Sequence record: PP763259.1
Reading direction: 5' to 3' (one strand)
Origin: Acinetobacter phage Ab15
DNA: 64,000 nt
Made by a program: the position numbers and the translations under genes. Every line of letters begins with the position of its first letter. Position 1 is the first letter of the stretch. The notes beneath the pieces are model-generated. The model did no database searches. It was given only the letters and a program-made list of their open reading frames with translations, and had not been told where the DNA came from. Below are positions 23,643-59,306 of this stretch, piece after piece.

Positions 23643-24043
23643 TCAAGGAGTTAGTTTTGTCTAGTTTAATGTGTATGGCGTTGGTTATCTTTTCAGAAGC
23701 TCGTGGTGAGCCACTTAAAGGTAAACAAGCTGTTGCAGAAGTAGTAGCAACACGATCTATTGAATGGAACAAAGATGTATGTGGTGTCATTTACCAAAAG
23801 GGTCAATTTACAGGAATTAGAAATGTAAAGCCACCTAAAGAGGGGACACCAGCACGAAAAGAATGGGAAGACTGTCATGCAATTGCTAAAAAGTATGTTC
23901 ATGATGAGAAATCCGTTACGAAATACAATGTAAAAAGACCTACAAACTTTACCAATAGGGCACTCTATTTCAATCGAGGTAGTAGTTGCTCTAATGGTAG
24001 TTATAAGATAACCAAAATAGGAAATCATGTTTTTTGTAGGTGA
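23639..24043 (+). CDS. cell-wall hydrolase, SleB/Hydrolase_2-like, with N-terminal signal or SAR segment
   Basis: 134 aa. It has the diagnostic SEARGEP motif. The hydrophobic N-terminus is LSSLMCMALVIFS. The start is probably a TTG or one of the internal ATGs at 23666/23672. Confidence 0.55.
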   Translation: MIKELVLSSLMCMALVIFSEARGEPLKGKQAVAEVVATRSIEWNKDVCGVIYQKGQFTGIRNVKPPKEGTPARKEWEDCHAIAKKYVHDEKSVTKYNVKRPTNFTNRALYFNRGSSCSNGSYKITKIGNHVFCR

Positions 24044-24067
24044 TTTTAATATTTAAAGGAGTTAAGT

Positions 24068-24373
24068 ATGTCAATAGAATCAATAAAAATTGATTTGTTC
24101 AAAGGTGAAATTAAAGGGTCTTACTCTTTCACTGTTAAATTCCAAAGTGGTGAGATGTATACACAAACAATGCAGACATTTCCAAGTTTAGCTAAGAATG
24201 TTCTTGATTCTTATAGACATAAGAGAGGAAGCCTTGAGGGAATTTCAGATGAAGATTTTATAGCTTGTATTAGACTTATAGATCAAGGTTTACCTGAAAG
24301 AAATCATGAACAAATAAACTATAATGGAAAAACCCTTTCTCTCTGCATTCAAAATATCGACAGTGGAGGTTAA
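24068..24373 (+). CDS. hypothetical protein
   Basis: 101 aa with the SD aaggag. Confidence 0.55.
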   Translation: MSIESIKIDLFKGEIKGSYSFTVKFQSGEMYTQTMQTFPSLAKNVLDSYRHKRGSLEGISDEDFIACIRLIDQGLPERNHEQINYNGKTLSLCIQNIDSGG

Positions 24374-24375
24374 GT

Positions 24376-24891
24376 ATGTCACAGGAAAGTGAAGACTTAG
24401 AAGTTTCTTCTCAAGATACTCCAATTGGCTCTGAGTTAATGACTAATGCTCAGAAAAAACTCAAAGAAGCCCAAAAGAAAAGAGTATCTTTAGAAAAAAT
24501 TATTGCTTTAACAGATGATGCTATGATTGACTCGATTCAGTACATGCACGAAACAGTAAAAAATCCTAAAGTAAGTCCAAATGCTCGTGTTGTTTGTGCG
24601 AATAACTTGGTTGCAATCAACCTTAAAGCTAAAAAACAACTTACAGAAGAGAAAATGGCTGAACAAATGTACAGACATAAGGAACTTGTTATCCGTGCTG
24701 AAGCTATGAAGATTGCTCAATTGGCTGGTATGGGTCAAGAAGGGGGAGGATATGCTTCAGAAAGAACTGGAACTTTACAGTTAGAGTACGTAGAGAATCC
24801 AGAATATGCTGATGTTCCTACCGACCCAACATTAGCTGATGGATACGTTCCTGAATCTGGTGAAGGTCTAGGTGAGTATGAGATAAATTAA
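24376..24891 (+). CDS. hypothetical acidic protein
   Basis: 171 aa. Confidence 0.55.
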   Translation: MSQESEDLEVSSQDTPIGSELMTNAQKKLKEAQKKRVSLEKIIALTDDAMIDSIQYMHETVKNPKVSPNARVVCANNLVAINLKAKKQLTEEKMAEQMYRHKELVIRAEAMKIAQLAGMGQEGGGYASERTGTLQLEYVENPEYADVPTDPTLADGYVPESGEGLGEYEIN

Positions 24892-24964
24892 TGATTATTT
24901 TTTAATCAATCAACACTTGTTTTCACTGTTTTTTTAAATTATTTTTAAAATTTATTGGTTTTAG

Positions 24965-24998
24965 GTGTTGACATTAATAAAATATCTGGTAATCTTAA
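24965..24998 (+). promoter_or_regulatory. candidate promoter for tRNA cluster (TTGACA -35)
   Basis: The sequence is aggtgTTGACAttaataaaatatctggTAATCTtaat. Confidence 0.3.
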
Positions 24999-25030
24999 TT
25001 ACATAAGCAGATTTGACATGAGATGATTGT

Positions 25031-25075
25031 TTCCTTTTAGATAACCAATGACTTAAATTACCATTGGTTATCTTT
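25031..25075 (+). terminator. 12-bp perfect inverted repeat hairpin plus T-run
   Basis: agataaccaatg...cattggttatct is followed by tttgtag. Confidence 0.45.
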
Positions 25076-25573
25076 TGTAGTAGTGCACGAGTGGTCGAAT
25101 GGGGTGGACTGTAAATTCACTATATCACACGTTGACGATCAATAGCACAGCGCAAAACAGATGCTTCCAAGAGCTTCAATCTGTGGCGGTGCTTCACAAT
25201 ACTTGGTTTTATTGGATGAAGCGAAACCTGTGTTTTAACATATAGGTAAATTGTATATAGCTTGGGGCATGAAACTCCGATTGATGTTTACTTATATTCT
25301 AGGTTATTCAGCTTAGTGACTGCTAGGAAAGACTAGCAACAAATTTACAAATATTCTCGAAAGTCCAAACGCATTAAGCGATATTACGAGATGGTGACGG
25401 GATCAATGAAAGGGCAACCCTAACCCCCTACTTGCAATGCGGTATTAGCGTCAAGTCAAAATGACAAAGTGCAAGATTGTAGACTGACTGCTAGGAAAGA
25501 CTAGCAAATCTAGAGAAGTGAATTATGATGGGGATTCTCGTTAGTTGCTGGCGTTCACTTCATCTAAGTTTAT

Positions 25574-25657
25574 GCGGAGACCTGATTGGTGTATTGAAGC
25601 AAGTGACTAGTTAAACTTGTGAATAGAGAGTGGTTCGATTCCACGTGACTCCGCTCC
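25574..25657 (+). tRNA. tRNA-like element (3' half canonical; anticodon arm not resolvable)
   Basis: The acceptor pairing is gcggaga/actccgc, the T-loop is ttcgatt and the 3' end is tCCA. I could not fold the D/anticodon region canonically. Confidence 0.25.
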
Positions 25658-25676
25658 AAAATTTTACTCGTTATAT

Positions 25677-25751
25677 AGTACCTTAGTTCAGGGGTAGAAC
25701 GCAGAACTGATAATTCTGAGGTCGATGGTTCGAAACCATCAGGTACTACCA
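25677..25751 (+). tRNA. tRNA-Ile (anticodon GAT)
   Basis: The acceptor is agtacct/aggtact, the D-stem is gttc/gaac and the anticodon stem is cagaa/ttctg with loop ctGATaa. The T-arm is gatgg-ttcgaaa-ccatc, with discriminator A and CCA. Confidence 0.7.
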
Positions 25752-25893
25752 AAATTTAATTGAAAGATTTATTTAAGATGTACTCTCTGTTTGTCAAATT
25801 AACATCAAGTGTAATCTTACTCTCACTGGTACGCCACTACCATAAGATTACATCTTAAATAGATTTTATAGCTATTTTAAAAGTTTATTCAGG

Positions 25894-25966
25894 TCTAGTG
25901 TAGCACAACGGTAGTGCAGCAGACTGTTAATCTGTTGGTTGTTGGTTCGAATCCAGCCTCTAGAGC
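25894..25966 (+). tRNA. tRNA-Asn (anticodon GTT)
   Basis: The acceptor is tctagtg/ctctaga (6/7), the D-stem is gcac/gtgc and the anticodon loop is ctGTTaa. The T-arm is gttgg-ttcgaat-ccagc. Confidence 0.55.
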
Positions 25967-26706
25967 CTGAGTAAATTAAGAATTACCCTTCGGGGTATGG
26001 GTCGTGTATAACCCTTAGATAAACTGCAAAACAGTATAAAGTCGTAACGGCAGTTATGGCGCAGATTAAAAATCTGTCAAGTACACACTCAAGGTATCAT
26101 ACTTATGTGGCGTAGAGCCAATCGGTGTAAACCATTTAAGTATGGGAGTGTAATGCTCCTGAGTCGATAGACAATAAGAGAACTTGAAGGTATCTAGCGA
26201 AGTTGATTGTCAAGTCAAAACGCTGTTTACCATTGTGAGAGGTATATAGAGTTTAACAGGTGGTGCTGAATCTCGTAGTCCTAAACCAAGTGGACAATAT
26301 ATGCTTGAAACATCGTGCATGGTAAAGCACATTAGGTAGTGTGGTATTGATGGGTTCAAAAGATCTGTTAGCCACAGAGAAACCACTATCTATGCAATAC
26401 AAATTTCATTTTAGGAAAAAATTAAATTCAAAAGTGTTTCTCACGTTGGCATGAAAGGTGCTTACATAGTAATGGGTTGTCCATTGCACATTTAACCCGA
26501 AAGGTTATTTGTAGTTTCATGAAAGGATTATGTTTGGTAGGCATACTAGCATAGTTTGAGTATTGGGAGAGTAGTTCCAACGTCTAAGAGTGGTTAGCTA
26601 TACTGACCAGCACTGATCACTACTATATAAAGTATAGTGGATAAGGAGGGAAAAATAATCCTCTCAAGGTGGTCATTTAAACGTGTAATCTCAGCGTTTT
26701 ACTTGT

Positions 26707-26782
26707 GGCTCGTTAGCTCAATCGGGAGAGCACTACACTGTCACTGTAGAGGTAATGGGATCGAAACCCATACGAGTCGCCA
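26707..26782 (+). tRNA. tRNA-Asp (anticodon GTC)
   Basis: The acceptor is ggctcgt/acgagtc and the anticodon stem is ctaca/tgtag with loop ctGTCac. The T-arm is ggatcgaaaccc, with discriminator G and CCA. Confidence 0.7.
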
Positions 26783-26784
26783 AT

Positions 26785-26861
26785 AGGACGTTAGCTTAGA
26801 GGCTTAAAGCAACTGTCTTTTAACCAGAAGATCATAGGTTCAAATCCTATACGTCCTACCA
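26785..26861 (+). tRNA. tRNA (77 nt) with irregular anticodon arm; possibly Lys (TTT)
   Basis: The acceptor aggacgt/acgtcct and the T-arm atagg-ttcaaat-cctat with A-CCA are perfect. The anticodon region aactgtcttttaaccagaag folds only with a weak stem or an 8-nt loop. Confidence 0.5.
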
Positions 26862-26866
26862 ACAAT

Positions 26867-26941
26867 GGTGACTTTAGTGTAATGGTTAGCATCACTCCCT
26901 GTGAAGGAGAAGGTCAGGGTTCAAATCCCGAAGTCACACCA
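26867..26941 (+). tRNA. tRNA-His (anticodon GTG) with extra 5' G
   Basis: G-1 is present, the acceptor is gtgactt/aagtcac and the anticodon stem is ctcc/ggag with loop ctGTGaa. The T-loop is ttcaaat and the 3' end is ACCA. Confidence 0.5.
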
Positions 26942-27465
26942 AGAATTTTAAGAATTTCAAAAGAGTATAGGTACAGTCCTGAAAGTTTGAAAGTGGGGCG
27001 ACACCTGCCTGAAGTAGTAGCTGATAATGGCCTGTTAGTGAATCTAAGTGGTGTGACTTGACTGACTTGGAGAGGAAGGTCGGGGCAAAGCACAAGTAGC
27101 TGAGATGGATTAGCGCTACCCTGAAGAGGTTGAGAGGTTGGATCGTTACCAACATTGTGCACCAAATTTTTAAAAGAAGAATTATTTTAGGATTACCATA
27201 ACCTAAAGGCTCGAAGGGGCGGTCTGCAACATCGTTGTTAGTGAGTTGAAGTCTCACATGGTAATCCAAAGTGATTTTTATAGAGGTTAAACCAGATAGG
27301 TTCTGGGACACCCTGCTAAGGTGATCGTGCTAGAAATAGCATTCGGATCGAGACCGATGACCTCTGCCAAATTTGTTGTGTGCTCCACAGGTTGATTCTG
27401 TTACGGTTATCCTCAAGACCAGACCGTAACAGGATGAGTTAAGCTTCTCTAAAAAAGCAAGTTTT

Positions 27466-27541
27466 GATTCCTTAGCTCAATTGGTAGAGCATTTCCCTTA
27501 CAAGGAAGAGGTCGTAGGTTCGAAACCTACAGGAATCACCA
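27466..27541 (+). tRNA. tRNA-Val (anticodon TAC)
   Basis: The acceptor gattcct/aggaatc is perfect and the D-stem is gctc/gagc. The anticodon stem is tttcc/ggaag with loop ctTACaa. The T-arm is gtagg-ttcgaaa-cctac, with A-CCA. Confidence 0.7.
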
Positions 27542-27666
27542 AATTTAGATATGGGAGTTGCAGGATTCTCCCACTGTTAGCTACTTTTAGAGTAGTCCGT
27601 GTAGGTTGACCGAACGAAGTTGTCGGTGATGCTACCAGAGCAGAACATTAATCAACACCTGTACTT

Positions 27667-27755
27667 GGTGGGTAGCGTCAAGGTGACAAAGAGGGCTTGA
27701 ACCCCTTGCCAATTGTGATGAGCAGTTGAGAGTTCGATTCTTTTACCCATCGCCA
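27667..27755 (+). tRNA. tRNA-Ser (anticodon TGA), type II with long variable arm
   Basis: 89 nt. The acceptor is ggtgggt/acccatc and the anticodon stem is gaggg/ccctt with loop ctTGAac. The variable arm is long, the T-loop is ttcgatt and the 3' end is G-CCA. Confidence 0.5.
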
Positions 27756-27756
27756 A

Positions 27757-27830
27757 GCGTTTATAGTGTAGTGGTAACACCCTGTACTTCCAATTCAGTA
27801 TCTTCGGTTCGAATCCGAATAGACGCTCCA
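27757..27830 (+). tRNA. tRNA-Gly (anticodon TCC)
   Basis: The acceptor is gcgttta/tagacgc and the D-stem is gtgt/acac. The anticodon loop is ctTCCaa and the T-arm is ttcgg-ttcgaat-ccgaa, with T-CCA. Confidence 0.6.
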
Positions 27831-27852
27831 GATTATGTTTATGGACACTTCC

Positions 27853-27970
27853 TAAGGTTCTTTCTACAGGTTCGAAACTGTTTTAAGAATTGCTGGTGCT
27901 AGGTTTAGCGTCAAGAATCATTCGAAGGGTTCTTGGGGTGGTGAGTTCGATTCTCACAGTGTTCCCCCGA
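27853..27970 (+). other. tRNA-like element about 117 nt, too long for a canonical tRNA
   Basis: The terminal pairing is ggacact/agtgttc and the T-arm gtgag-ttcgatt-ctcac is perfect. An internal second T-arm-like ctacag-gttcgaa-actgt is present and there is no encoded CCA. Confidence 0.25.
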
Positions 27971-27983
27971 TTTTAAAGTTTAT

Positions 27984-28060
27984 CTCTGTGTAGCTCAGTT
28001 TGGTAGAGCACTCGCTTTGGGAGTGAGGGGTCGTAAGTTCAATTCTTACTACAGAGACCA
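27984..28060 (+). tRNA. tRNA-Pro (anticodon TGG)
   Basis: The acceptor is ctctgtg/tacagag and the D-arm is gctc-agtttggta-gagc. The anticodon stem is ctcgc/gtgag with loop ttTGGga. The T-arm is gtaag-ttcaatt-cttac, with A-CCA. Confidence 0.7.
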
Positions 28061-28147
28061 GTTATGAAGTGTTTGTACAGCTATCAGCTCACCGTTTAAA
28101 GGATACGGACAAGTCGGCTCGACTAAAGACTCACTTCATATGTTTTT

Positions 28148-28224
28148 GGGTAGTTGAAGGGAATGGCATACCTTTCACGCTTAGAACGTGAAGTTTCTGA
28201 GTTCGAGTCTCAGACTACCTACCA
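28148..28224 (+). tRNA. tRNA with anticodon TAG (Leu-type anticodon) but short variable arm (type I)
   Basis: The acceptor is gggtagt/actacct and the anticodon stem tcacg/cgtga is perfect, with loop ctTAGaa. The variable loop is 5 nt. The T-arm is ctgag-ttcgagt-ctcag, with A-CCA. Confidence 0.55.
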
Positions 28225-28230
28225 AATTCT

Positions 28231-28306
28231 GGGGATATAGCCCAATGGCAGAGGCAAGAGGTTTAAACCCTCTCAAGTTTCAGTTCGAATCTGAATATCC
28301 CTACCA
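28231..28306 (+). tRNA. tRNA with anticodon TAA (Leu-type anticodon) but short variable arm (type I)
   Basis: The acceptor ggggata/tatccct and the anticodon stem agagg/cctct are perfect. The loop is ttTAAac and the variable loop is 4 nt. The T-arm is ttcag-ttcgaat-ctgaa, with A-CCA. Confidence 0.6.
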
Positions 28307-28321
28307 ATTTAGGAGTGCTAC

Positions 28322-28603
28322 ATGGAAGTATTACTTGTTAGTGATTGTAGATGCCAAGAGCGTTATGACTTTGCAGATATTGTAAAGGATGCTCAAGAAC
28401 AAGGTATTAAAATTAAGTATACATTAGTTCCTAAGAAGATATCCTATGAAGATAGAACTTACACATTTGTTAATGTTGAAGATCTCACTAAGGATAAAAG
28501 TTGTATTGTTGGTAAGAAGTTTGATGATGTCTATTTGACACCAGAAGCTAAAGATGCTATACCTTTAGGGTTGCTATCATTTATACTTACAAGAATACGT
28601 TAA
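28322..28603 (+). CDS. hypothetical protein inside tRNA cluster
   Basis: 93 aa with the SD aggag 7 nt upstream of the ATG. Confidence 0.5.
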   Translation: MEVLLVSDCRCQERYDFADIVKDAQEQGIKIKYTLVPKKISYEDRTYTFVNVEDLTKDKSCIVGKKFDDVYLTPEAKDAIPLGLLSFILTRIR

Positions 28604-28610
28604 GGTTAAT

Positions 28611-28687
28611 GTGCCATTAGCTCAATTGGATAGAGCAGAAGGTTTCTACCCTTAAGGTTGGGAGTTCGAATCTCTCATGGCATGCCA
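28611..28687 (+). tRNA. tRNA-Arg (anticodon TCT)
   Basis: The acceptor is gtgccat/atggcat and the D-arm is gctc-aattggata-gagc. The anticodon loop is ttTCTac and the T-arm is gggag-ttcgaat-ctctc, with G-CCA. Confidence 0.6.
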
Positions 28688-28700
28688 ATTAAAAGTTTAT

Positions 28701-28775
28701 TCCGAATTAGCTCAATGGTAGAGCAGTGCTTTTGTAATGCAAAGGTTGTGTGTTCGAATCACACATTCGGAACCA
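28701..28775 (+). tRNA. tRNA-Thr (anticodon TGT), weak anticodon stem
   Basis: The acceptor tccgaat/attcgga is perfect, the D-arm is gctc-aatggta-gagc and the T-arm gtgtg-ttcgaat-cacac is perfect. The loop tttTGTaa is flanked by only 3 Watson-Crick pairs. Confidence 0.6.
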
Positions 28776-28780
28776 ATTTA

Positions 28781-28858
28781 GGTCCTTTAGCACATATTGG
28801 TCTGTGCACCATGCTCATAACGTGGAGGATTTTGGTTCGATTCCAAAAAGGACCACCA
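28781..28858 (+). tRNA. tRNA-Met (anticodon CAT)
   Basis: The acceptor is ggtcctt/aaggacc, the anticodon stem is ccatg/cgtgg with loop ctCATaa and the T-arm is tttgg-ttcgatt-ccaaa, with A-CCA. Confidence 0.65.
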
Positions 28859-28922
28859 GTTTATATTGGGGAGTGTACTTGTCCTACATTCCACCAATGT
28901 AAACAACATAGAGGACAAGTCT

Positions 28923-29435
28923 ATGCAAGAGTTTTGGAAAGATGTTGTAGGTTATGAAGATTATTTCATGGTTTCTGATTTAGGTAGGGTTTACTCTAAA
29001 AGGTCAGGGAAGATTTTAAAACAGCATACTAACAGGAAAGGCTATATGCAGATTTCTACTAGAATTGGTGGTAGAAAAGGTATGGTTGTTTGTTTCAAGG
29101 TACATCGTTTGGTTGCTGAGGCTTTTATTAAAAATCCAGAAGGTAAAATAGCTGTTAACCACAAGAATGGTGTTAAAGACGATAATTGTGTAGGTAATCT
29201 AGAGTGGGTCACTCATAAAGAAAACCTAAAACATGCTGTTGATACAGGGCTGCTTAATTACGACCACTTGTTTGGTGCAAAACATCCAAAAAGAGTTTTG
29301 AGTTATCTTGAAGCAGAGGAAATTAGGCTGCTGCATCGAACTTCATCTAGATCATTAAGATCTATTGCTAAGGAGTTTCAGTGCCACCATCAGACAGTCC
29401 GAGAAATTATTGGTATGAAAACATATCTATCCTGA
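28923..29435 (+). CDS. HNH homing endonuclease (NUMOD4 plus HNH_3) inserted in tRNA cluster
   Basis: The likely start is MQEFWKDVVGYEDYFMVSDLGRVYS, behind the SD gagga. The HNH core is VNHKNGVKDDNCVGNLEWVTHKENLKHA. The track ORF starts earlier, at 28866. Confidence 0.7.
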   Translation: MQEFWKDVVGYEDYFMVSDLGRVYSKRSGKILKQHTNRKGYMQISTRIGGRKGMVVCFKVHRLVAEAFIKNPEGKIAVNHKNGVKDDNCVGNLEWVTHKENLKHAVDTGLLNYDHLFGAKHPKRVLSYLEAEEIRLLHRTSSRSLRSIAKEFQCHHQTVREIIGMKTYLS

Positions 29436-29590
29436 CACTATCAAATTGGATTAAGGTGTTGGTACGTGACATCCTTAATCGGCATGATTTTAGTTTATGT
29501 CGATGTGATAAACATGACTAGATAGATATGTCGATAAAAACTAGAAATTAAAACACGTAGTATTAAAATGTTAAAAATAATTAAACAAAA

Positions 29591-29626
29591 CACTTGACAA
29601 ATAGATTTTTAGTGTTATATATAATA
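29591..29626 (+). promoter_or_regulatory. candidate promoter (TTGACA -35, TATATA -10 region)
   Basis: The sequence cacTTGACAaatagatttttagtgtTATATAtaat lies upstream of the tRNA at 29648. Confidence 0.4.
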
Positions 29627-29647
29627 TATAAGCAATTAAGTTTTCAT

Positions 29648-29722
29648 AGCGAGGTAGTGTAACGGTTTGCACAGGGGACTCATAATCCTCTGGTTTGGGT
29701 TCGAATCCCAACTTCGCTTCCA
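29648..29722 (+). tRNA. second tRNA with anticodon CAT (elongator Met or Ile2/lysidine type; not initiator-like)
   Basis: The acceptor is agcgagg/cttcgct and the D-arm is gtgt-aacggtt-tgcac. The anticodon stem is gggga/tcctc with loop ctCATaa. The T-arm is ttggg-ttcgaat-cccaa, with T-CCA. The 1:72 pair is A:T, not the initiator mismatch. Confidence 0.65.
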
Positions 29723-29742
29723 GTTTCGGAGGATCAATTATC

Positions 29743-30057
29743 GTGTATTTAGAACTAGTAGAAAATGAAGCATTTAGCCAGATTGGTACAAACCGAAAGG
29801 TTATCTTCAAATTTGGTGCAAAATGGTGCTCTGGTTGTAAAGCGATAACTCCAGTCCTCAAAAAATTATCTGAACAAAATCCTGATATTATCTTTGTAGA
29901 TATCGATATTGAGCAATCGAAAGGATTAGCTGAAAGATTTAATGTTCAGACCTTACCAACTTTCATATCTTTCCAAGAGTCCTTAAAGAAGGATACCATT
30001 GTAGGTACTCCTAAAATTACTCAGTTGAAAGAAATGATCGCAAATATGCAAAAATAA
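29743..30057 (+). CDS. trx: thioredoxin
   Basis: The active-site motif is FGAKWCSGCK and the protein has a Trx-fold length. The likely start is GTG 29743 behind ggagga. The track ORF start at 29695 would overlap the tRNA. Confidence 0.7.
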   Translation: MYLELVENEAFSQIGTNRKVIFKFGAKWCSGCKAITPVLKKLSEQNPDIIFVDIDIEQSKGLAERFNVQTLPTFISFQESLKKDTIVGTPKITQLKEMIANMQK

Positions 30058-30203
30058 TAATAAAATACATCGGTTCCGTTCCAAACCTTTAGTTTAAGGT
30101 TTTTCTCCAATCCCACTAACCAAATAACTGTTATGGATGACACAAGTCAATAATAGGGAATAATTAAGGTTAGTGGGTTTTCTTTTATTCAAGGAGTGTA
30201 AGT

Positions 30204-31634
30204 ATGAGTAACATATTTGCACCTTGCTCTCCAGTACAAGCGAAGCTACTTCAAAGTGATGCCACAATCACAGTTTATGGTGGATCTATGGGCAGTGCTA
30301 AAACCTATGGAGGTCTACTAAGACACCTTCAATATGTAAATAGTCCACATTATGTTGGTTACGTAATCCGTAAAAATGAAGTAGTTCTGAGGGCTGGTGG
30401 TGGTGCTTTTGAAGAAGCCAAAGCTTTATACAAGGCATTTGAGCCAAGAGTTAAAATCACAGAGAAACCTATGAGGTTTCGCTTTCCTTCTGGTGCTGTA
30501 ATTAACTTTGCAGGTGCTGAAGATGAGAAAGCTATGGAAAAATATCGTGGTCTTAACTTAACTGGTGTAATGGTCGATGAAGGTACACAGTTATCAGAAA
30601 GACAAATTTGGTTCTTGATCTCTCGTTTGCGTAACGGTAAAGATCCAAACATTATGCCAAATATATGGATTACATGTAACCCTGACCCTGATAGTTATTT
30701 GTTTGAATGGGTTAAGTGGTATTTATATCCTGTAGGGCATCCTCTTGCTGGAAGACCTGATAAAGATAAGAATGGATTAAAAAGATATTTCGTATCGACT
30801 CCAGAAGGTTTAGTTTGGAGTGATAATGAACAGGAACTACTTGATAAGTATCCACATTTATTTACAAAAGGGACTAGACCACTAAGTTTTAGATTTATTG
30901 GTGGTACAGTTTACGATAACCCACCTCTTCTTAAGAACTCACCTCAATATCTTCAAAACCTACTCCAACAGAAAGACCGAGTAGTGCGAGAACGTGAGTT
31001 GTACGGCAACTGGTTTGCACGTAGGGAAGATTCAAGTTACTTCAACAGGTCTTGGTGTGAGATAGTTGATAAGCCTCCTGAAAGGGTCCGTAAAAGGGTT
31101 CGTTCTTGGGACTTGGCTTTCACATTACCAACTGAGACAAACCCAAACCCCGATTATACCTGTGGTGTTCGTCTGAGTAAAGATGATGAAGGTACAATCT
31201 ATGTTGAAGACATGGTTCTTGAAAGGGTTGGTTCTGGGCAAATTATTGAGTTAATTGCAAAGACTGGCCTAGAAGATGCTGAGATGTTTGGTGTTGTTGA
31301 AACAACAATCCCTCAAGATGCTGGTGGTATGGCTAAATTTGCAGCTAGGGATATGGCCTCTAAGCTAAGAGAGCATGGTGTATCTCCTATTGTAGTTCCT
31401 GTAGGTAATAAAGGCAAACTCGTTCGTTTTATTCCATTCTCAGGTGCAGCACAAAATAAACATGTGAAGATTGTACGTGGTGATTGGAATGCAGCCTTCT
31501 TTCATCAGTTAGAAGCTTTTGGAAGTGGAAATAAGGCTGTGCACGATGATGCTGTCGATGCTGTTGCTGATGCTTATAAAAGAGTAGCAGAAAATAGAAC
31601 GATTGACTATGCCATCGACTTAGCAGTTTTATAA
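30204..31634 (+). CDS. terL: terminase large subunit
   Basis: 476 aa. The N-terminal ATPase region is VYGGSMGSAKTYGG, with a Walker B-like LTGVMVDEGTQL. An acidic nuclease-like C-half follows. It is the first gene of the morphogenesis block, followed by portal. Confidence 0.75.
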   Translation: MSNIFAPCSPVQAKLLQSDATITVYGGSMGSAKTYGGLLRHLQYVNSPHYVGYVIRKNEVVLRAGGGAFEEAKALYKAFEPRVKITEKPMRFRFPSGAVINFAGAEDEKAMEKYRGLNLTGVMVDEGTQLSERQIWFLISRLRNGKDPNIMPNIWITCNPDPDSYLFEWVKWYLYPVGHPLAGRPDKDKNGLKRYFVSTPEGLVWSDNEQELLDKYPHLFTKGTRPLSFRFIGGTVYDNPPLLKNSPQYLQNLLQQKDRVVRERELYGNWFARREDSSYFNRSWCEIVDKPPERVRKRVRSWDLAFTLPTETNPNPDYTCGVRLSKDDEGTIYVEDMVLERVGSGQIIELIAKTGLEDAEMFGVVETTIPQDAGGMAKFAARDMASKLREHGVSPIVVPVGNKGKLVRFIPFSGAAQNKHVKIVRGDWNAAFFHQLEAFGSGNKAVHDDAVDAVADAYKRVAENRTIDYAIDLAVL

Positions 31635-54804: not shown

Positions 54805-57576
54805 TTATTGACAGTTATCACATTCTTCATGTCGCTTAATATCACCAGATCCCCTCATAGAGTAGATGTAGTATAAAGCTAAGATACCTGCATTTTCCAA
54901 AGCATATTTGTGAACCTTCATAATATACTCTGGAGTGTCATTACTTGTAAAATACAAGTTGATTGACTGTTGCTGATCAATATATTGTTGTCGTTGTGCA
55001 CACAAATCCAAATGTTTGATCATGTCAATCTCAAAGGCAGTTCTAAAGACATCCTTCTCATGCTGAGTCAACCAGTGAACATGTTGTACAGAACCTTTAT
55101 GCTTATTGATGTCATTGATTACGTCTTCATTGTAAACACCACGTTCCTTCATGATCTCTAGAAGGACCTTATTAACCCTCCAGATATCTCCTCCAGCACT
55201 CTGCTTAACGAACACCATAGCAACATCTAAACCAATACCTTCAGAAGCACCAGCCATAATCTCTGCTGTTGACTTTGTAGGTGGCATCATCATCGTTGTT
55301 GCATTACGGATTCCTAAATGAGCGCACCCTTCAGGCATACCAACTTCACGAGCCAACCACTTAGAAGCAGCTAAGGTTTGATCTCTCATACCCTTAAAGA
55401 TTTCTTCATTTAACCAGAAGCTCTCAAGGCTACCTACCACAATTCTACGTTTTTGTAGTAGTGTGTGGAAACCTAATACACCTGTACCAACTGCACGGAA
55501 TCTCTTGGTGAAGGCTAAGATTTTTCTAAATGCCAAGGCATCCTCTTTACCTTGCTTAGTTCGGTTTTCCATAAACTCGATGTAGTCACTCACATTACAA
55601 TCTTGCATTACATGTGCAATAAATGCTAAGTGAGGACATCTCGATTTCCACTCATCGTATAAGTCAAGGTTCAAGTTCAGAATTACACAAGAGAATGTAT
55701 GCTTCTCATCACTACCAAGTAACACTTCTTGGCAATTCATAGTATTCAAACCATTGAACATCAACATGTTACGTTTTGGCTCAAGTGCACAATATGTATC
55801 ATCAAATCTTCCTTGGTCGATCACTTCATCAACACATACAAATCTTTCAGCAGAACGTTGAGGTTTTCTTTCACTCCATTTTAGGCGGTGTGTTTTTAAA
55901 CCTAACTGACTCAACTTAAAGAGACCTGTACTCGATACAAGAAGACGATAAGCATCTTGGCATTCAAACAGTCCTTTATCACCCGTACCATTATTGAGAG
56001 GTAATTCTTTTAGACCACCTACATCCCTCAAGACAACCTTTGAAGAAACACCAAGTGTTTGTAACATCAATTGCACATCTTGTAAGAATGTCTTGTGAAT
56101 GCTTACCACTTGGATAGATTCATTTTCACCATTACGAGCAATAGTTCCATCTGAATCTAGGAGTCCAGCAAACCATTCCAATCGGCTTTCAACAGTGTAC
56201 TCAGATGTTGGTACAAAGAATTTATCCTTAAGTCCTTCACTGTGAGTAAGCTTAATACGATCACCACCTTGAAGTCCTGACACTGAAGAAACGCAAGTTA
56301 TATTTTCAAGTAACTCCTTCTTCTTACCATACAAGTATGTGTGTTTTTTACCTTTGTATTCAAAACCATCACCAGTGAAGAATCCATTAGTGTAAGCATG
56401 TTCGAGGGTCTTGTCACCTAAAATAACTGGTAGATCAAATTTAGATAGTCGATCACCAGACTTCAACTCGTAGGCACGTTTAATGACCTCATTGCCATCC
56501 TCACCAACAACCTTAAAGCGGTGATACTCTGTGCAATCTAATTCATACCCTGAATCAGTTACCACTTTAACTAACTTCTGATTTTCACCAGTTTTGATAA
56601 TTGTCACTTCAGACCATTCAAAACCATTCCACACCTCGACCTGTTGTCCCTCAAGGTCAGAAATCGTTTGATATCCACTTTTAGTTAAGATTAATGTCTC
56701 AGGTGAAACACACAAATTAGAAGCTTTCGCTGTCATACCTGCATCTTTAAATGCCTGAGCTAAGTGGCGGTTCATTTCATCAATCTTAGTGAAGTAACCC
56801 TTACCACGTTGCATCTTGATAGCAATAGCTTTAGCTAATAGGGCAACTGCTTCTGGGTCATCCTTGACTAACTTCTCAATGTACTCGTCCTTACATAACC
56901 ATGCTGGGTTATTACTTTCAGGTCGTTTGAATAAGTACTTTAAAACTTCCTCAAACTCGGGATGTTCAATACTTACAGCATAAGATAAACTACCTCTACG
57001 GCTACCTTGAACAACCTCATCCATACAGTTGATTAAGTCACGGATAAGAGGCATAACCCCACCACTGTAACCACCACGAGGTAGTTTCTTACCTTTATAG
57101 GCCCAATCATCAATTGAGTAAGATGTACCATGTGAGTGCTTAGTTAGGATAGCTGCTTCAGTCACACAATCATAACGAGAGAACAAGTCATCACCAACAT
57201 AACCGCTAGCACAACTTACTGTTGATCCCCTTTCAGGTAAACCACTGTTCGCCAATAAAGGAGTTGAACAAGACACATAACCATCCCAAAGTACGTCAAA
57301 AAACACCTCCTCCCAAGTTTTACCAGCCGTATAAGTATCCACATTCCACCAAGAAGGGTACTTATCTGGTGCATGTTTAGCTAAAGTCTTAGCAATCATT
57401 TTATAGCGAGCTTTTACAGTCTCACCATTCCACGAATACTTTTCAAAGAACAACTGAGTCCCACCAGTGGTAAACCATTTAGGGATCTCTCCATGTTCTT
57501 GTAGTTTTTTTCGAAGTTGACTGTAACTGTCAACCCCGTATAATTCCAATGTCTCTAAATAAGATAAAACAGCCAC
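54805..57576 (-). CDS. nrdA: ribonucleotide reductase large subunit with in-frame LAGLIDADG intein
   Basis: 923 aa. The catalytic motif SNL-C…N-CQEV is split by about 326 aa beginning CVSPETLILTKSGY (intein block A). It contains GFFTGDG and FAGLLDSDG dodecapeptide motifs and ends ...NTMN|C. Confidence 0.75.
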   Translation of the reverse strand: MAVLSYLETLELYGVDSYSQLRKKLQEHGEIPKWFTTGGTQLFFEKYSWNGETVKARYKMIAKTLAKHAPDKYPSWWNVDTYTAGKTWEEVFFDVLWDGYVSCSTPLLANSGLPERGSTVSCASGYVGDDLFSRYDCVTEAAILTKHSHGTSYSIDDWAYKGKKLPRGGYSGGVMPLIRDLINCMDEVVQGSRRGSLSYAVSIEHPEFEEVLKYLFKRPESNNPAWLCKDEYIEKLVKDDPEAVALLAKAIAIKMQRGKGYFTKIDEMNRHLAQAFKDAGMTAKASNLCVSPETLILTKSGYQTISDLEGQQVEVWNGFEWSEVTIIKTGENQKLVKVVTDSGYELDCTEYHRFKVVGEDGNEVIKRAYELKSGDRLSKFDLPVILGDKTLEHAYTNGFFTGDGFEYKGKKHTYLYGKKKELLENITCVSSVSGLQGGDRIKLTHSEGLKDKFFVPTSEYTVESRLEWFAGLLDSDGTIARNGENESIQVVSIHKTFLQDVQLMLQTLGVSSKVVLRDVGGLKELPLNNGTGDKGLFECQDAYRLLVSSTGLFKLSQLGLKTHRLKWSERKPQRSAERFVCVDEVIDQGRFDDTYCALEPKRNMLMFNGLNTMNCQEVLLGSDEKHTFSCVILNLNLDLYDEWKSRCPHLAFIAHVMQDCNVSDYIEFMENRTKQGKEDALAFRKILAFTKRFRAVGTGVLGFHTLLQKRRIVVGSLESFWLNEEIFKGMRDQTLAASKWLAREVGMPEGCAHLGIRNATTMMMPPTKSTAEIMAGASEGIGLDVAMVFVKQSAGGDIWRVNKVLLEIMKERGVYNEDVINDINKHKGSVQHVHWLTQHEKDVFRTAFEIDMIKHLDLCAQRQQYIDQQQSINLYFTSNDTPEYIMKVHKYALENAGILALYYIYSMRGSGDIKRHEECDNCQ
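55735..56712 (-). mobile_element. intein (LAGLIDADG homing-endonuclease type) within nrdA
   Basis: Residues 289-614 of the ORF. Excision restores the NLCQEV active-site motif. Confidence 0.65.
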
Positions 57577-57586
57577 AAATACCTCC

Positions 57587-58150
57587 TTACTTACTTCCTT
57601 GTAATCCTTTATTCTCTTCTGAATCTTCCATGATCAGCTTCAAGAGTTCTTCTTGTTCCTCTTGTTCTTTCTTCCTCATATTATTCCAAGCTTCTACAAA
57701 CATAGCCTCAGACCAGTTACTTTCATACTCTCGGTTTTGACCCTTAGTGAAGAAATCTGGCATCTGGTAACCGTATGTATTTAAGTTAAACATCTTAGCC
57801 ACTTTAGAATCCTTCTGAGTAACTTGAAACTCTTTAGGGATTTTATCTACAGGAACCTGCAAACGAGTCAAGAAAGTAAAGATTCGGAAGCGCACAAAAT
57901 CAATGTACTCGGCTGTTGTATACCCATTAAGTGAACCTGAAGGGATTGCCATATCAATGATTCGCTTCTCATGCTCTAACACGTAGTGGCAAGCTTGTAG
58001 TAACTTTCCAAACATTTCTTCATGCTCATGTAGAGGTTTCCCTACTTCATGGAAATAGGTGTTAAAATGTTCTGCGGCGTAAATTCCATGCAACATGGGT
58101 TGTTCAGGTGTGCTCGTTACACACACCCCGTAGAGTACTTCACCACTCAA
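57587..58150 (-). CDS. nrdB: ribonucleotide reductase small subunit, C-terminal exon region
   Basis: It carries GSLNGYTTAEYIDFVRFRIFTFLTRLQVPV, matching the conserved GLNkd..YveYitN.R...GL region of R2. It has no proper start (TTG). It lies out of frame with the upstream part. Confidence 0.55.
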   Translation of the reverse strand: MSGEVLYGVCVTSTPEQPMLHGIYAAEHFNTYFHEVGKPLHEHEEMFGKLLQACHYVLEHEKRIIDMAIPSGSLNGYTTAEYIDFVRFRIFTFLTRLQVPVDKIPKEFQVTQKDSKVAKMFNLNTYGYQMPDFFTKGQNREYESNWSEAMFVEAWNNMRKKEQEEQEELLKLIMEDSEENKGLQGSK

Positions 58151-58538: not shown

Positions 58539-59306
58539 TTAATCCTCATCTAGTGCACTCTGGTTAGCAATTTGGGCAATAACTTTAATTAAGTTAAAAC
58601 CATTTGTCTGGAAGCTCTTAAGGATAGCAAAACTAGAGAACAACAAAGCTGTCTCTGTTAAAGAGAAGCACAAGCATGCAAGCATCTTGTTTTCATCTCG
58701 CATTAAACCATCTAACCATTCCATACGTTCATTGAGTACAGGGTCATCAATGTATGATGTGTAGTAATCATCAGTATCTAGTCCAAGTACAATGTTAATC
58801 TCATTGTACGTTCGTGCATGGACCATCAACTCAATCATTGCTAAAGCAGAAGCACCAGCACGGGATTCATGTCGAGGGAATACTTTAATGAATAATCCAT
58901 TCCAGAATTCATCACCAACAATTAATTCATACTGTAAGAATAAGTGTAGAACTGTTTTTACTGCATGTAGTTGCTCTTTAGTTAGCACATACTCAAGTTC
59001 CATCTGGTCATTCTTGACTTCCATTTCACTCTTAAACCACATCTGCTCTTCAAGCTGCTGGTCAGCAATCTCAAGAATCTTTGGGTACTTAATCTCATAG
59101 CCACTATTGGGTGATGTAATACGGGTTTGCACTAATCCAGTTTTCTCTGAATTTAATGTTTTGTTTATTGTCACATAAACGAATTTCCCTTCAGGGTTTT
59201 TCTCATCCTTGACATTGATGATAACCTTTCCAGCCGGTGGTGGTAAAAATCTAATCTTCTCAACCTGACCTTCGGTTAAATCCACCTCAATATTAATTTT
59301 AGACAT
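58539..59306 (-). CDS. nrdB: ribonucleotide reductase small subunit, N-terminal exon region
   Basis: It carries KYPKILEIADQQLEEQMWFKSEMEV…LTKEQLHAVKTVLHLF…AMIELMVHARTY…SLTETALLFSSFAIL. This matches the R2 FW.pEE, E..H and helix-E Glu regions. The ORF runs into a stop before the expected RDE..H motif. Confidence 0.6.
   Translation of the reverse strand: MSKINIEVDLTEGQVEKIRFLPPPAGKVIINVKDEKNPEGKFVYVTINKTLNSEKTGLVQTRITSPNSGYEIKYPKILEIADQQLEEQMWFKSEMEVKNDQMELEYVLTKEQLHAVKTVLHLFLQYELIVGDEFWNGLFIKVFPRHESRAGASALAMIELMVHARTYNEINIVLGLDTDDYYTSYIDDPVLNERMEWLDGLMRDENKMLACLCFSLTETALLFSSFAILKSFQTNGFNLIKVIAQIANQSALDED

Follow-up and report, generated by a model that had tools for sequence, protein, structure and literature searches.

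The tRNA region of bacteriophage T4 with its species 1 and species 2 RNAs is an example of co-transcribed small stable RNAs within a phage tRNA array. A setting close to tRNA genes is also typical of a large RNA, GOLLD (Rfam family RF02032, Weinberg et al. 2009), which is borne by phages and prophages, often by tRNA islands, and is conserved in its 3′ region and variable in its 5′ region (Kretsch et al. 2025). Family members reach a total of about 700–800 nt or more, and their expression goes up with lytic growth. GOLLD env-38, 833 nt in length, has been solved by cryo-EM (PDB 9MEE) and forms a 14-mer cage held together by kissing loops and A-minor bridges (Kretsch et al. 2025). Binding of GOLLD to ribosomes has been reported, and a function is not reported in the GOLLD literature examined, including that from 2025 on. 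As to Acinetobacter, a literature search on GOLLD yielded nothing relevant in main texts; the link appears only in the supplement of Kretsch et al. (2025), whose GOLLD alignment already includes the copies of the AM24/YMC13-03-R2096/Bestia phage group. In addition, bacteriophages are a reported source of tRNA-Ser with an 8/4 acceptor branch (Mukai et al. 2017, NAR 45:2776).

The DNA analyzed here is a stretch of 64,000 nucleotides from Acinetobacter phage Ab15 (PP763259.1; in the following the window). The phage is a lytic Acinetobacter baumannii myophage of the AM24/YMC13-03-R2096/Bestia group and carries a long array of tRNA genes on the plus strand. Two segments of this array had been singled out in an initial annotation as long structured RNAs. 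We conclude with high confidence that segment 1 (25968–26706, plus strand) is a GOLLD RNA and that segment 2 (26942–27465, plus strand) consists of three non-canonical tRNA genes and two variable spacers (Table 1). The array contains real structured RNA, but of known kinds, and no new RNA family. The canonical tRNAs that delimit the segments were found on the same strand just where they had been placed (Asn ending at 25967, Asp starting at 26707, His ending at 26941, and Val starting at 27466).

Table 1. Features of the tRNA array from tRNA-Asn to tRNA-Val (positions in the window).
Feature	Position	Strand	Basis and remarks
tRNA-Asn(GUU)	25894–25967	+	ARAGORN; Rfam tRNA 66.3 bits; upstream flank
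GOLLD 5′ domain, lineage-variable half	25980–26331 (352 nt)	+	alignment with vB_AciJM_313, RNAalifold
GOLLD conserved 3′ region	26332–26697	+	Rfam RF02032 match
tRNA-Asp(GUC)	26707–26782	+	ARAGORN and Rfam; between both segments
tRNA-Lys(UUU)	26785–26861	+	ARAGORN and Rfam; between both segments
tRNA-His(GUG)	26868–26941	+	ARAGORN and Rfam; between both segments
Spacer, 148 nt, without supported structure or function	26942–27089	+	MFE z-score +0.62
tRNA-Phe(GAA), non-canonical	27090–27164	+	Rfam tRNA 38.6 bits, relaxed ARAGORN, annotation in relatives
tRNA-Cys(GCA), non-canonical	27193–27268	+	ARAGORN at ps80, homologues, covariation
tRNA-Ser(GCU), class II, 8/4 acceptor branch	27282–27369	+	ARAGORN at ps80, fold, covariation
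Spacer, 96 nt, variable indel	27370–27465	+	MFE z-score −2.6
tRNA-Val(UAC)	27466–27541	+	ARAGORN; Rfam 72.9 bits; downstream flank

The assignment of segment 1 is carried by the Rfam model RF02032, which matches the conserved 3′ region over its full length (model positions 1–416 of 416) with 218.9 bits against a gathering threshold of 150 (E = 1.3e-60). The matched region takes in the hairpin that terminates the 5′ half, a linker rich in A and U (about 26393–26430), and the pseudoknotted 3′ domain. The long-range pseudoknot of this domain is present; in the model alignment it is formed by CACGUUGGCA and UUCCAACGU, and one of the pairs is flagged as non-standard. The same model also matches in Bestia, YMC13, AM24, Herod, and AciJM313 (207–225 bits). 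The 5′ domain is about 70% identical to a region of the A. johnsonii phage vB_AciJM_313 (L005:2037–2775). For both sequences together RNAalifold predicts 99 pairs in this domain, 21 of which are kept via changes on both sides, and the CAGAT/ATCTG hairpin of segment 1 reads AGGAT/ATCCT in vB_AciJM_313. Open reading frames in the 5′ domain gave no match in a Pfam and PHROG search. Altogether the RNA is about 720 nt long (25980–26700), and its location between tRNA-Asn and tRNA-Asp in an Acinetobacter myophage corresponds to the family-typical phage setting beside tRNA genes. One small hairpin of the Rfam consensus is missing (a 13-nt gap at about model positions 233–245). The gap lies where the paired inner hairpins are located, and thus the oligomeric state or the contacts could differ from those of env-38. 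The Rfam search of the relatives found no GOLLD in phage Mithridates, and consequently GOLLD is not essential.

The eight sequence motifs on which the initial annotation was based were all recovered where it had located them and occur once each: GGATTACCAT at 27190, ATGGTAATCC at 27258, GTGAG-TTGAAGT-CTCAC at 27241, CTGTTACGGT at 27398, ACCGTAACAG at 27423, GGTTCTGGGACACCC at 27299, GGATCGAGACCGATGACC at 27345, and CAGATTAAAAATCTG at 26062. The hairpin of the last motif is part of the GOLLD 5′ domain. Segment 2 contains two perfect inverted repeats of 10 bp, which is above chance, since just 11 of 2000 dinucleotide-preserving shuffles contained at least two. The proposed GC richness relative to the phage (G+C of the window 37.1%) applies to segment 2 (42.7%) and not to segment 1 (38.0%). 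The central claim, that both spans are structured non-coding RNA genes and not spacer DNA in a same-strand tRNA cluster, is correct, and stems in both are backed by covariation. This is the case for the CAGAT/ATCTG hairpin and for the 10-bp stem with its inner hairpin, but not for CTGTTACGGT/ACCGTAACAG, which belongs to a variable indel and is mismatched in relatives. The notion of an undescribed family of non-coding RNA found no support, as the Rfam scan which the annotation itself had proposed places segment 1 in the described GOLLD family. Likewise, segment 2 turned out to be three separate tRNA genes with two variable spacers instead of one long RNA, and the statement that no tRNA can be folded there is wrong: it contains three cloverleaves, one of which scores above the Rfam tRNA threshold (38.6 vs. 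29 bits).

This one is the tRNA-Phe, the sole tRNA of segment 2 to pass RF00005 (27090–27161). ARAGORN reports it only at a relaxed threshold. Its oddities are a U·U mismatch in the anticodon stem, G37, and the T loop AUCGUUA with A54/U58 for U54/A58. The homologue is annotated as tRNA-Phe in Bestia, YMC13, AM24, Herod, and Mithridates; the Herod copy has a compensatory change from A-U to G-C in the acceptor stem, and the anticodon stem that is mismatched in the window copy is perfect in Bestia, AM24, and Herod.

The tRNA-Cys accounts for the nested complementarity described initially. The pair GGATTACCAT/ATGGTAATCC is its acceptor stem extended by three leader/trailer pairs, and GTGAG-TTGAAGT-CTCAC forms the T arm, with UUGAAGU as the loop. 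Further features of this tRNA are a U1-A72 acceptor stem, a D stem of 3 bp, U73, and a CCA that is encoded in the gene. A homologue with 89% identity is annotated as tRNA-Cys in Acibel004, and further homologues are found in AciJM313 and D22, with the D22 copy lying above the Rfam tRNA threshold (39.7 bits). In the alignment of the homologues 95% of the cells of the cloverleaf are paired, 6 of 20 pairs are compensated, and the anticodon loop CUGCAAC as well as U73-CCA are found. The change from C56 in D22 to G56 here is accompanied by a change of the D-loop GGG to GGC, which is consistent with a swapped tertiary pair.

The tRNA-Ser is a class II tRNA with an acceptor stem of 8 bp, a T stem of 4 bp, a 5-bp D stem with a 5-nt loop, a long variable arm, the T loop AUCGAGA, G73, and an encoded CCA; the GC-rich motifs GGTTCTGGGACACCC and GGATCGAGACCGATGACC fall within it. 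The sequence folds as a cloverleaf with an MFE z-score of −3.3. Homologues with about 74% identity exist in 123 records of Pseudomonas phages of the genus Pakpunavirus, where they are unannotated, and in three divergent IMG/VR contigs. A description of a Ser-like element was not found in the examined passages of the PAK_P3 and PAK_P4 transcriptome papers. Across the aligned homologues 96.9% of the structure is paired, and compensation is seen at 15 of 23 pairs. The tRNA-Ser has the anticodon loop CUGCUAA and G73-CCA; the anticodon and T loops are invariant across the Acinetobacter, Pseudomonas, and metagenomic phages. The eighth acceptor pair (columns 8–82) is formed in 7 of 7 sequences (AU in five, CG and GC in one each), whereas pair 49:65 of the alternative 7/5 arrangement forms in only one of the seven. 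The identity set for SerRS, namely G73 and a long variable arm, which has 18 nt and a stem of 5 bp, is present in the window and in the Pakpunavirus copies. The three metagenomic homologues have U73 in place of G73, which makes the serine identity uncertain for the family as a whole.

The three tRNAs form one block which is kept in all six relatives. It is their departures from the consensus that cause default detectors to miss them. ARAGORN detects tRNA-Cys and tRNA-Ser only at the 80% threshold, and neither has an Rfam tRNA match at E ≤ 10 in a search of the 524 nt of segment 2. As both show covariation without passing the Rfam score, we file them as non-canonical tRNAs and not as members of RF00005. 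Apart from tRNA-Phe the scan of segment 2 gave only matches to CRISPR-DR45 (E = 8.7) and ceN56 (E = 4.8), which are noise. The consensus T loop (U54 U55 C56 R57 A58) is found in none of the three, and they deviate at positions that normally do not vary (Phe and Ser have A54, Cys has G56). The D-loop GG is present in all of them and the identity elements are intact, that is, 7-nt anticodon loops with U33, U73 in tRNA-Cys, G73 and the long variable arm in tRNA-Ser, and an encoded CCA. Judged from these elements, the trio most likely would act as ordinary phage-supplied decoders of the UUY, UGY, and AGY codons, provided that the tRNAs are aminoacylated as predicted.

It could be objected that the elements of segment 2 are decaying tRNA pseudogenes or recombination debris without present function, which would leave GOLLD and the canonical tRNAs as the only elements of importance. 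Relics do occur in the cluster, for example, a truncated tRNA-Tyr, whose missing 3′ part is absent elsewhere in the window (which was checked with an intron or a split gene in mind), and poor tRNA-like remnants at 25574–25658 and 27843–27968. Moreover, tRNA-Cys and tRNA-Ser fail the Rfam tRNA model, the T loops are off consensus, tRNA-Phe has the U·U mismatch, and the spacers vary by indels. We nevertheless regard decay as unlikely, because 95–100% of the cloverleaf pairs are kept via 6–15 double substitutions across phage genera, the anticodon loop, T loop, and CCA are held invariant, and the trio is found in all six relatives while its neighbours vary. That the trio has diverged from the consensus and is yet conserved and inherited as one block, and that the same Ser-type gene is retained in unrelated Pseudomonas phages, would also fit tRNAs which are not, or not only, decoders and instead are nuclease-resistant substitutes or decoys against tRNA-cleaving defences of the host, with T and D loops altered for evasion. 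Phage tRNAs are known to counter tRNA-targeting defences. However, for none of Phe, Cys, and Ser(GCU) is there a link to a defence system or nuclease here, and the deviations reside in the T loop and not in the anticodon loop, which is the site of the known anticodon nucleases and is ordinary in all three tRNAs. The tRNA-like decoy considered in the initial annotation is not the simplest reading, and we hold it to be improbable. A broader scheme starts from the observation that GOLLD, tRNA-Asp, tRNA-Lys, and tRNA-His are jointly missing from the sibling phage Mithridates, as one block (25977–26948) that is bounded by TAAGAATT repeats. This block might be a discrete accessory cassette in which GOLLD acts jointly with the tRNAs around it and shields or sequesters phage tRNAs from a tRNA-targeting host defence, and the trio might be a second, defence-evading module that is unannotated in more than 130 phage genomes. 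The Tyr, Asn, Asp, His, and Lys isoacceptors are targets of known anticodon nucleases. We consider this scheme as a whole to be quite improbable.

Another reading takes one or both spans, or the leftover spacers, for an undescribed family of small RNAs or processing scaffolds. The 148-nt spacer has a best Rfam match of only E = 4.8; it is missing from Herod and from AM24, where an HNH endonuclease gene is found, and Bestia and Mithridates have other sequence in place of its 5′ third. When the two HNH proteins of AM24 were compared with the window by tblastn, no match was obtained, so that we reject an origin of this spacer as a remnant of the HNH gene. The 96-nt spacer holds a 14-bp hairpin (about 27395–27435) that includes CTGTTACGGT/ACCGTAACAG and is part of an 82-bp indel (27376–27457), which is missing in AM24 and Herod and replaced by unrelated sequence in Mithridates; the stem is mismatched in Bestia and YMC13. 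Sensitive BLAST against 50,697 phage records found no homologues of the spacers beyond relatives with 93–98% identity, which makes a covariation test impossible for both. The better fold of the hairpin spacer compared with shuffled sequences (z −2.6) and the hairpins or cloverleaf-like shapes that other gaps of the cluster also form speak for a new RNA family in one or both spans or in these leftovers. On the other hand, segment 1 is wholly explained by GOLLD and tRNAs cover 239 of the 524 nt of segment 2, the spacers are present or absent among siblings without distant homologues, the longer one is unstructured, and the hairpin at 27395–27435 gains a mismatch and not a compensation. We therefore judge such a family very unlikely and regard both spacers as variable filler that arose by recombination between short repeats. 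As for proteins, the initial statement that the spans lack open reading frames is almost correct: mechanical ORFs of 49–125 aa exist on both strands, the longest reaching 125 aa (for example, 26934–27311 on the minus strand). Yet the six ORFs compared with Pfam and PHROG gave no matches, they overlap with RNA helices that covary, and the substitutions that separate the lineages track base-pairing and not codon structure. The relatives have no annotated coding sequence here save in AM24, where the His region has given way to the HNH gene, which is unrelated and of which there is no trace in the window. We give next to no credence to hidden small protein genes.

How the GOLLD RNA is produced might be suggested by its position. 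Co-transcription of both segments with the tRNA array, as assumed initially, is plausible. A scan of 24000–30500 for promoter and terminator consensus sequences yielded fewer promoter-like sites than in shuffled sequences and no convincing internal terminator, and is uninformative on the transcription units. Transcribed along with the array, GOLLD could be freed by the enzymes that mature the adjacent tRNAs: RNase P would cut at the 5′ end of tRNA-Asp, 6 nt downstream, and so generate the 3′ side, and 3′-end processing of tRNA-Asn would set the 5′ end. The RNA is predicted to fold into a lineage-specific 5′ domain, the A/U-rich linker, and the family-wide pseudoknotted 3′ domain, and by analogy to env-38 its copies may join late in infection to form a cage made of RNA only. 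The location adjacent to tRNAs together with the reported binding to ribosomes points to a possible role of GOLLD in translation or tRNA supply.

On its own the locus consists of a catalogued RNA family and tRNA genes that were correctly rediscovered by eye. It is of practical use in three respects. GOLLD is present here in culturable lytic A. baumannii phages, and Mithridates, a sibling with about 97% identity, is naturally devoid of it, so that phenotypes can be compared in an isogenic-like manner. At least two tRNA genes, Cys and Ser(GCU), are missing from the counts for the phage group and at least one from those for the 123 Pakpunavirus records, which bears on arguments about codon usage and host range in phage-therapy genomes. 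In addition, the tRNA-Ser provides well-studied phages with a clean example of the 8/4 architecture that is backed by covariation.

Compared with the T4 array, the locus likewise is a same-strand polycistronic array whose non-tRNA RNAs would be released by tRNA-processing enzymes, but the T4 RNAs have only about 120–140 nt and are unrelated in sequence, whereas the non-tRNA member here is GOLLD. With the GOLLD family segment 1 shares the match to the full-length model including the pseudoknot, the conserved 3′ and variable 5′ domains, the A/U-rich linker, and the phage tRNA setting. It is somewhat shorter than env-38 (about 720 vs. 833 nt) and has one consensus hairpin fewer. The host is a gammaproteobacterium in contrast to Lactobacillales or lake bacteria, but copies from such phages are already part of the published alignment. 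ROOL RNA (RF03087) resembles GOLLD as a large ornate phage RNA that is found by tRNA islands and forms an RNA-only cage; its sequence and fold are distinct from the GOLLD copy here, and it was ruled out, as there is no match in the window at the gathering threshold nor in 24500–30000 at E ≤ 1. The tRNA-Ser, finally, differs from the allo-tRNA group of Mukai et al. (2017) in its D stem (5 bp with a 5-nt loop vs. 6 bp with a tetraloop) and has AUCGAGA as T loop. It has a true serine anticodon (GCU), so that no recoding is implied. With the (8/4) tRNA-Ser/allo-tRNA group it shares the 12-bp branch split 8/4, the long variable arm, G73, the longer D stem with a small loop, the extended anticodon stem, and the origin from phages.

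ARAGORN with default settings detects 15 plus-strand tRNA genes in the tRNA cluster of the window (25677–29722) and leaves two gaps without a tRNA call, segment 1 (25968–26706) and segment 2 (26942–27465). The region 25900–27500 matches Acinetobacter phages only and is 95–98% identical (megablast) in Bestia, YMC13/03/R2096, P577, AM24, Herod, and Mithridates, all ~97-kb myophages of A. baumannii, whose records carry annotated tRNAs on either side of the first gap and leave the gap itself blank. The coordinates and motifs of the initial annotation were all exact. Its statement that both gaps are devoid of open reading frames is nearly correct: mechanical ORFs as long as 125 aa are present on both strands, but none has a Pfam or PHROGs match.

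Scanning the whole window with Rfam identified segment 1 as GOLLD, a large phage RNA. The match to RF02032 (26332–26697, plus strand) scores 218.9 bits vs. a gathering score of 150 (E 1.3e-60) and spans model positions 1–416 of 416. The alignment comprises the opening hairpin, an A/U-rich linker, a pseudoknot in which CACGUUGGCA pairs with UUCCAACGU, and the 3′ hairpins, but lacks one 13-nt hairpin of the consensus. The model is confined to the conserved 3′ region of GOLLD RNAs; what remains of the gap (25980–26331) is the variable 5′ domain. Positions 25988–26701 align at 70% identity to 2037–2775 of the locus L005 from the A. johnsonii phage vB_AciJM_313, and 21 of the 99 pairs predicted by RNAalifold in the 5′ part are retained via changes on both sides, among them those of a hairpin already pointed out in the initial annotation (CAGAT/ATCTG, AGGAT/ATCCT in vB_AciJM_313). 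RF02032 is also found in Herod, Bestia, YMC13, AM24, and vB_AciJM_313 (207–225 bits), and gives no match at the Mithridates, Acibel004, and D22 loci. ROOL as identity was excluded by the scan.

GOLLD RNAs are borne by phages and prophages, frequently close to tRNA islands, and the known structure is a D7 14-mer cage made of RNA only (Kretsch et al. 2025, PMC12286853). The supplementary alignment of the same study lists P577, YMC13/03/R2096, Bestia, Herod, and AM24 at homologous coordinates. Thus, segment 1 is an RNA known before and on record for this phage lineage, not the undescribed family that had been considered among other options. Segment 1 shows all tested features of GOLLD; by analogy with the family it would be expressed and form a cage. 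Our literature search found no functional assignment of GOLLD in papers from 2025 onward, and the main value here is that of a tractable system for this question.

In Mithridates the block made up of GOLLD, tRNA-Asp, tRNA-Lys, and tRNA-His is missing in its entirety (25977–26948 vs. 1568–1746 in the Mithridates locus L008), and its tRNA-Asn joins directly to the sequence located after tRNA-His in the window. TAAGAATT is present at both borders of the block in the window (25977 and 26949). We conclude that GOLLD is dispensable and behaves like a component of an accessory cassette. Mithridates is a natural GOLLD-minus sibling.

Several further elements were noticed in the cluster and its vicinity. 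A truncated tRNA-Tyr(GUA) at 25077–25134, a state shared with Herod, matches the first 58 nt of the 82-nt tRNA-Tyr that AM24, Bestia, and Mithridates carry; unrelated sequence stands in place of the final 24 nt (GTTCGAATCCAACCTGCTACACCA), of which the window has no copy elsewhere. The ~440-nt non-coding stretch between this remnant and tRNA-Ile contains the exact 22-mer GACTGCTAGGAAAGACTAGCAA twice (25318–25339, 25486–25507), is missing in YMC13, and is only ~70% identical in Mithridates. At 25574–25658 lies an unannotated tRNA-like element with the T arm GUGG-UUCGAUU-CCAC, a 6-bp acceptor-like stem, a 10-nt "anticodon" loop, and a UCCA end, kept in 5/5 close relatives with the region. The A/T-rich tRNA-Ile/tRNA-Asn spacer (25752–25893, 27% G+C) forms a long hairpin with a 19-bp closing stem (z −2.7). 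Another tRNA-like fold (27843–27968) has an intact T arm (GUGAG-UUCGAUU-CUCAC), the closing stem GGACACU/AGUGUUC, and additional hairpins, but no CCA; it is kept in Bestia, YMC13, AM24, and Herod and missing in Mithridates. tRNA-Pro and tRNA-Leu are separated by a 79-nt insertion (28064–28142) that is missing in AM24, Herod, and Mithridates and folds into a four-way junction resembling a cloverleaf but lacking the tRNA consensus. The stretch 27545–27726, from tRNA-Val to the 3′ part of tRNA-Ser(UGA) and containing the 5′ two-thirds of the latter, is unalignable with Bestia, AM24, and Mithridates, where tRNA-Val is directly followed by tRNA-Ser; it is a mosaic replacement common to Herod and, from 27667 on, YMC13.

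Outside the cluster, a group I intron (RF00028, 58161–58575, minus strand, 54.9 bits vs. 50) splits the ribonucleotide reductase small-subunit gene into the ORFs 58539–59306 and 57587–58150, the upstream exon matching PF00268. The large-subunit ORF (54805–57576, minus strand, 923 aa) carries a LAGLIDADG endonuclease domain that exceeds the Pfam cut-off and, between the reductase domains, a sub-threshold intein-splicing match (25.6 vs. 35.8 bits), which together suggest an intein.

Segment 2 had been considered free of foldable tRNAs as well. With relaxed thresholds ARAGORN nevertheless yields three tRNA genes, each backed comparatively, and segment 2 consists of these genes and two spacers. 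As the 80% threshold also gives obvious false positives on the minus strand, every call was tested comparatively.

tRNA genes of segment 2 and the ARAGORN thresholds at which they were detected
Feature	Position	Strand	Detection
tRNA-Phe(GAA)	27090–27164	+	ARAGORN, threshold ~95%
tRNA-Cys(GCA)	27193–27268	+	ARAGORN, 80% threshold
tRNA-Ser(GCU)	27282–27369	+	ARAGORN, 80% threshold

tRNA-Phe has a weak Rfam tRNA match (27090–27161, 38.6 bits vs. 29) and is annotated in 5/5 relatives. Its acceptor stem carries a compensated A-U to G-C change in Herod, and the anticodon stem, with a U·U in the window, is perfect in Bestia, AM24, and Herod.

Segment 2 contains two perfect 10-bp inverted repeats within 80 nt; at least two were found in just 11 of 2000 dinucleotide-preserving shuffles. 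The repeat GGATTACCAT/ATGGTAATCC, rightly noted as a stem, is the 7-bp acceptor of tRNA-Cys (UUACCAU/AUGGUAA) extended by three leader/trailer pairs, with compensated pairs in homologues, and the enclosed hairpin GTGAG-TTGAAGT-CTCAC is its T arm; the 3′ end is U73 followed by CCA. An 89%-identical copy in Acibel004 is annotated as tRNA-Cys, and copies also occur in vB_AciJM_313 and in D22, the latter having a canonical T loop and passing the Rfam tRNA model at 39.7 bits. Over four sequences 95% of the cloverleaf cells are paired (slid controls 37–50%) and 6/20 pairs are compensated. The tRNA-Cys and tRNA-Ser of the window fail the Rfam tRNA model RF00005 and depart from the T-loop consensus; therefore we class both, on covariation, as non-canonical tRNAs. 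In vB_AciJM_313 the tRNA-Cys homologue (L005 ~1423–1506) is unannotated, as is a tRNA-like gene just 3′ of GOLLD (~2810–2880) that ends in CCA and has the anticodon loop CUGUUAA.

Neither spacer is supported as functional RNA. Spacer 26942–27089 folds no better than shuffles (z +0.62), a search for distant homologues gave none, and it is missing in AM24 and Herod and has its first third swapped in Bestia and Mithridates. Its derivation from the HNH gene of AM24 was rejected by direct comparison. Spacer 27370–27465 forms a 14-bp hairpin (z −2.6) that includes the second 10-bp stem of the initial annotation; this stem has an uncompensated A·C mismatch in Bestia and YMC13. AM24 and Herod lack precisely positions 27376–27457, for which Mithridates has unrelated sequence.

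The minimum free energy fold of tRNA-Ser is a class II cloverleaf (z −3.3). Sensitive BLAST detected homologues of ~74% identity in 123 Pseudomonas Pakpunavirus records (e.g., JG004, C11, and EM, L009–L011 ~1501–1596), directly after tRNA-Lys; no tRNA-Ser is annotated at the match in the records listed, including the RefSeq record of phage EM. A pattern scan of IMG/VR added three divergent metagenomic copies, 3/3 with U73. Among seven sequences 96.9% of the cells are paired and 15/23 pairs compensated, with invariant anticodon (CUGCUAA) and T (AUCGAGA) loops. The base following the seventh pair of the acceptor stem is matched with the one following the T stem in 7/7 (AU in five, CG and GC in one each), and the 49:65 pair needed for a 7/5 cloverleaf forms in only one. 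The acceptor branch is thus 8/4, with an 8-bp acceptor and a 4-bp T stem.

Since the array lies on one strand, is tightly packed, and gave no convincing internal signals in a consensus scan, itself uninformative, it is probably transcribed as a single unit. Maturation of tRNA-Asn upstream and of tRNA-Asp 6 nt downstream would free GOLLD, which would then assemble into a homo-oligomeric cage like env-38, a GOLLD with solved cage structure. tRNA-Phe, -Cys, and -Ser would be charged and decode UUY, UGY, and AGY codons. We regard it as very improbable that the GOLLD–tRNA cassette and the three unusual tRNAs serve as anti-defence modules.

Neither segment contains a new kind of element, and what is new is bookkeeping only: in this phage group the Cys and Ser(GCU) genes had escaped annotation, as had the Ser gene in the 123 matching Pakpunavirus records. 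The (8/4) tRNA-Ser of bacteriophages has been described as a member of the allo-tRNA group (Mukai et al. 2017, PMC5389517), and the tRNA-Ser of the window agrees with the 8/4 definition of this group.
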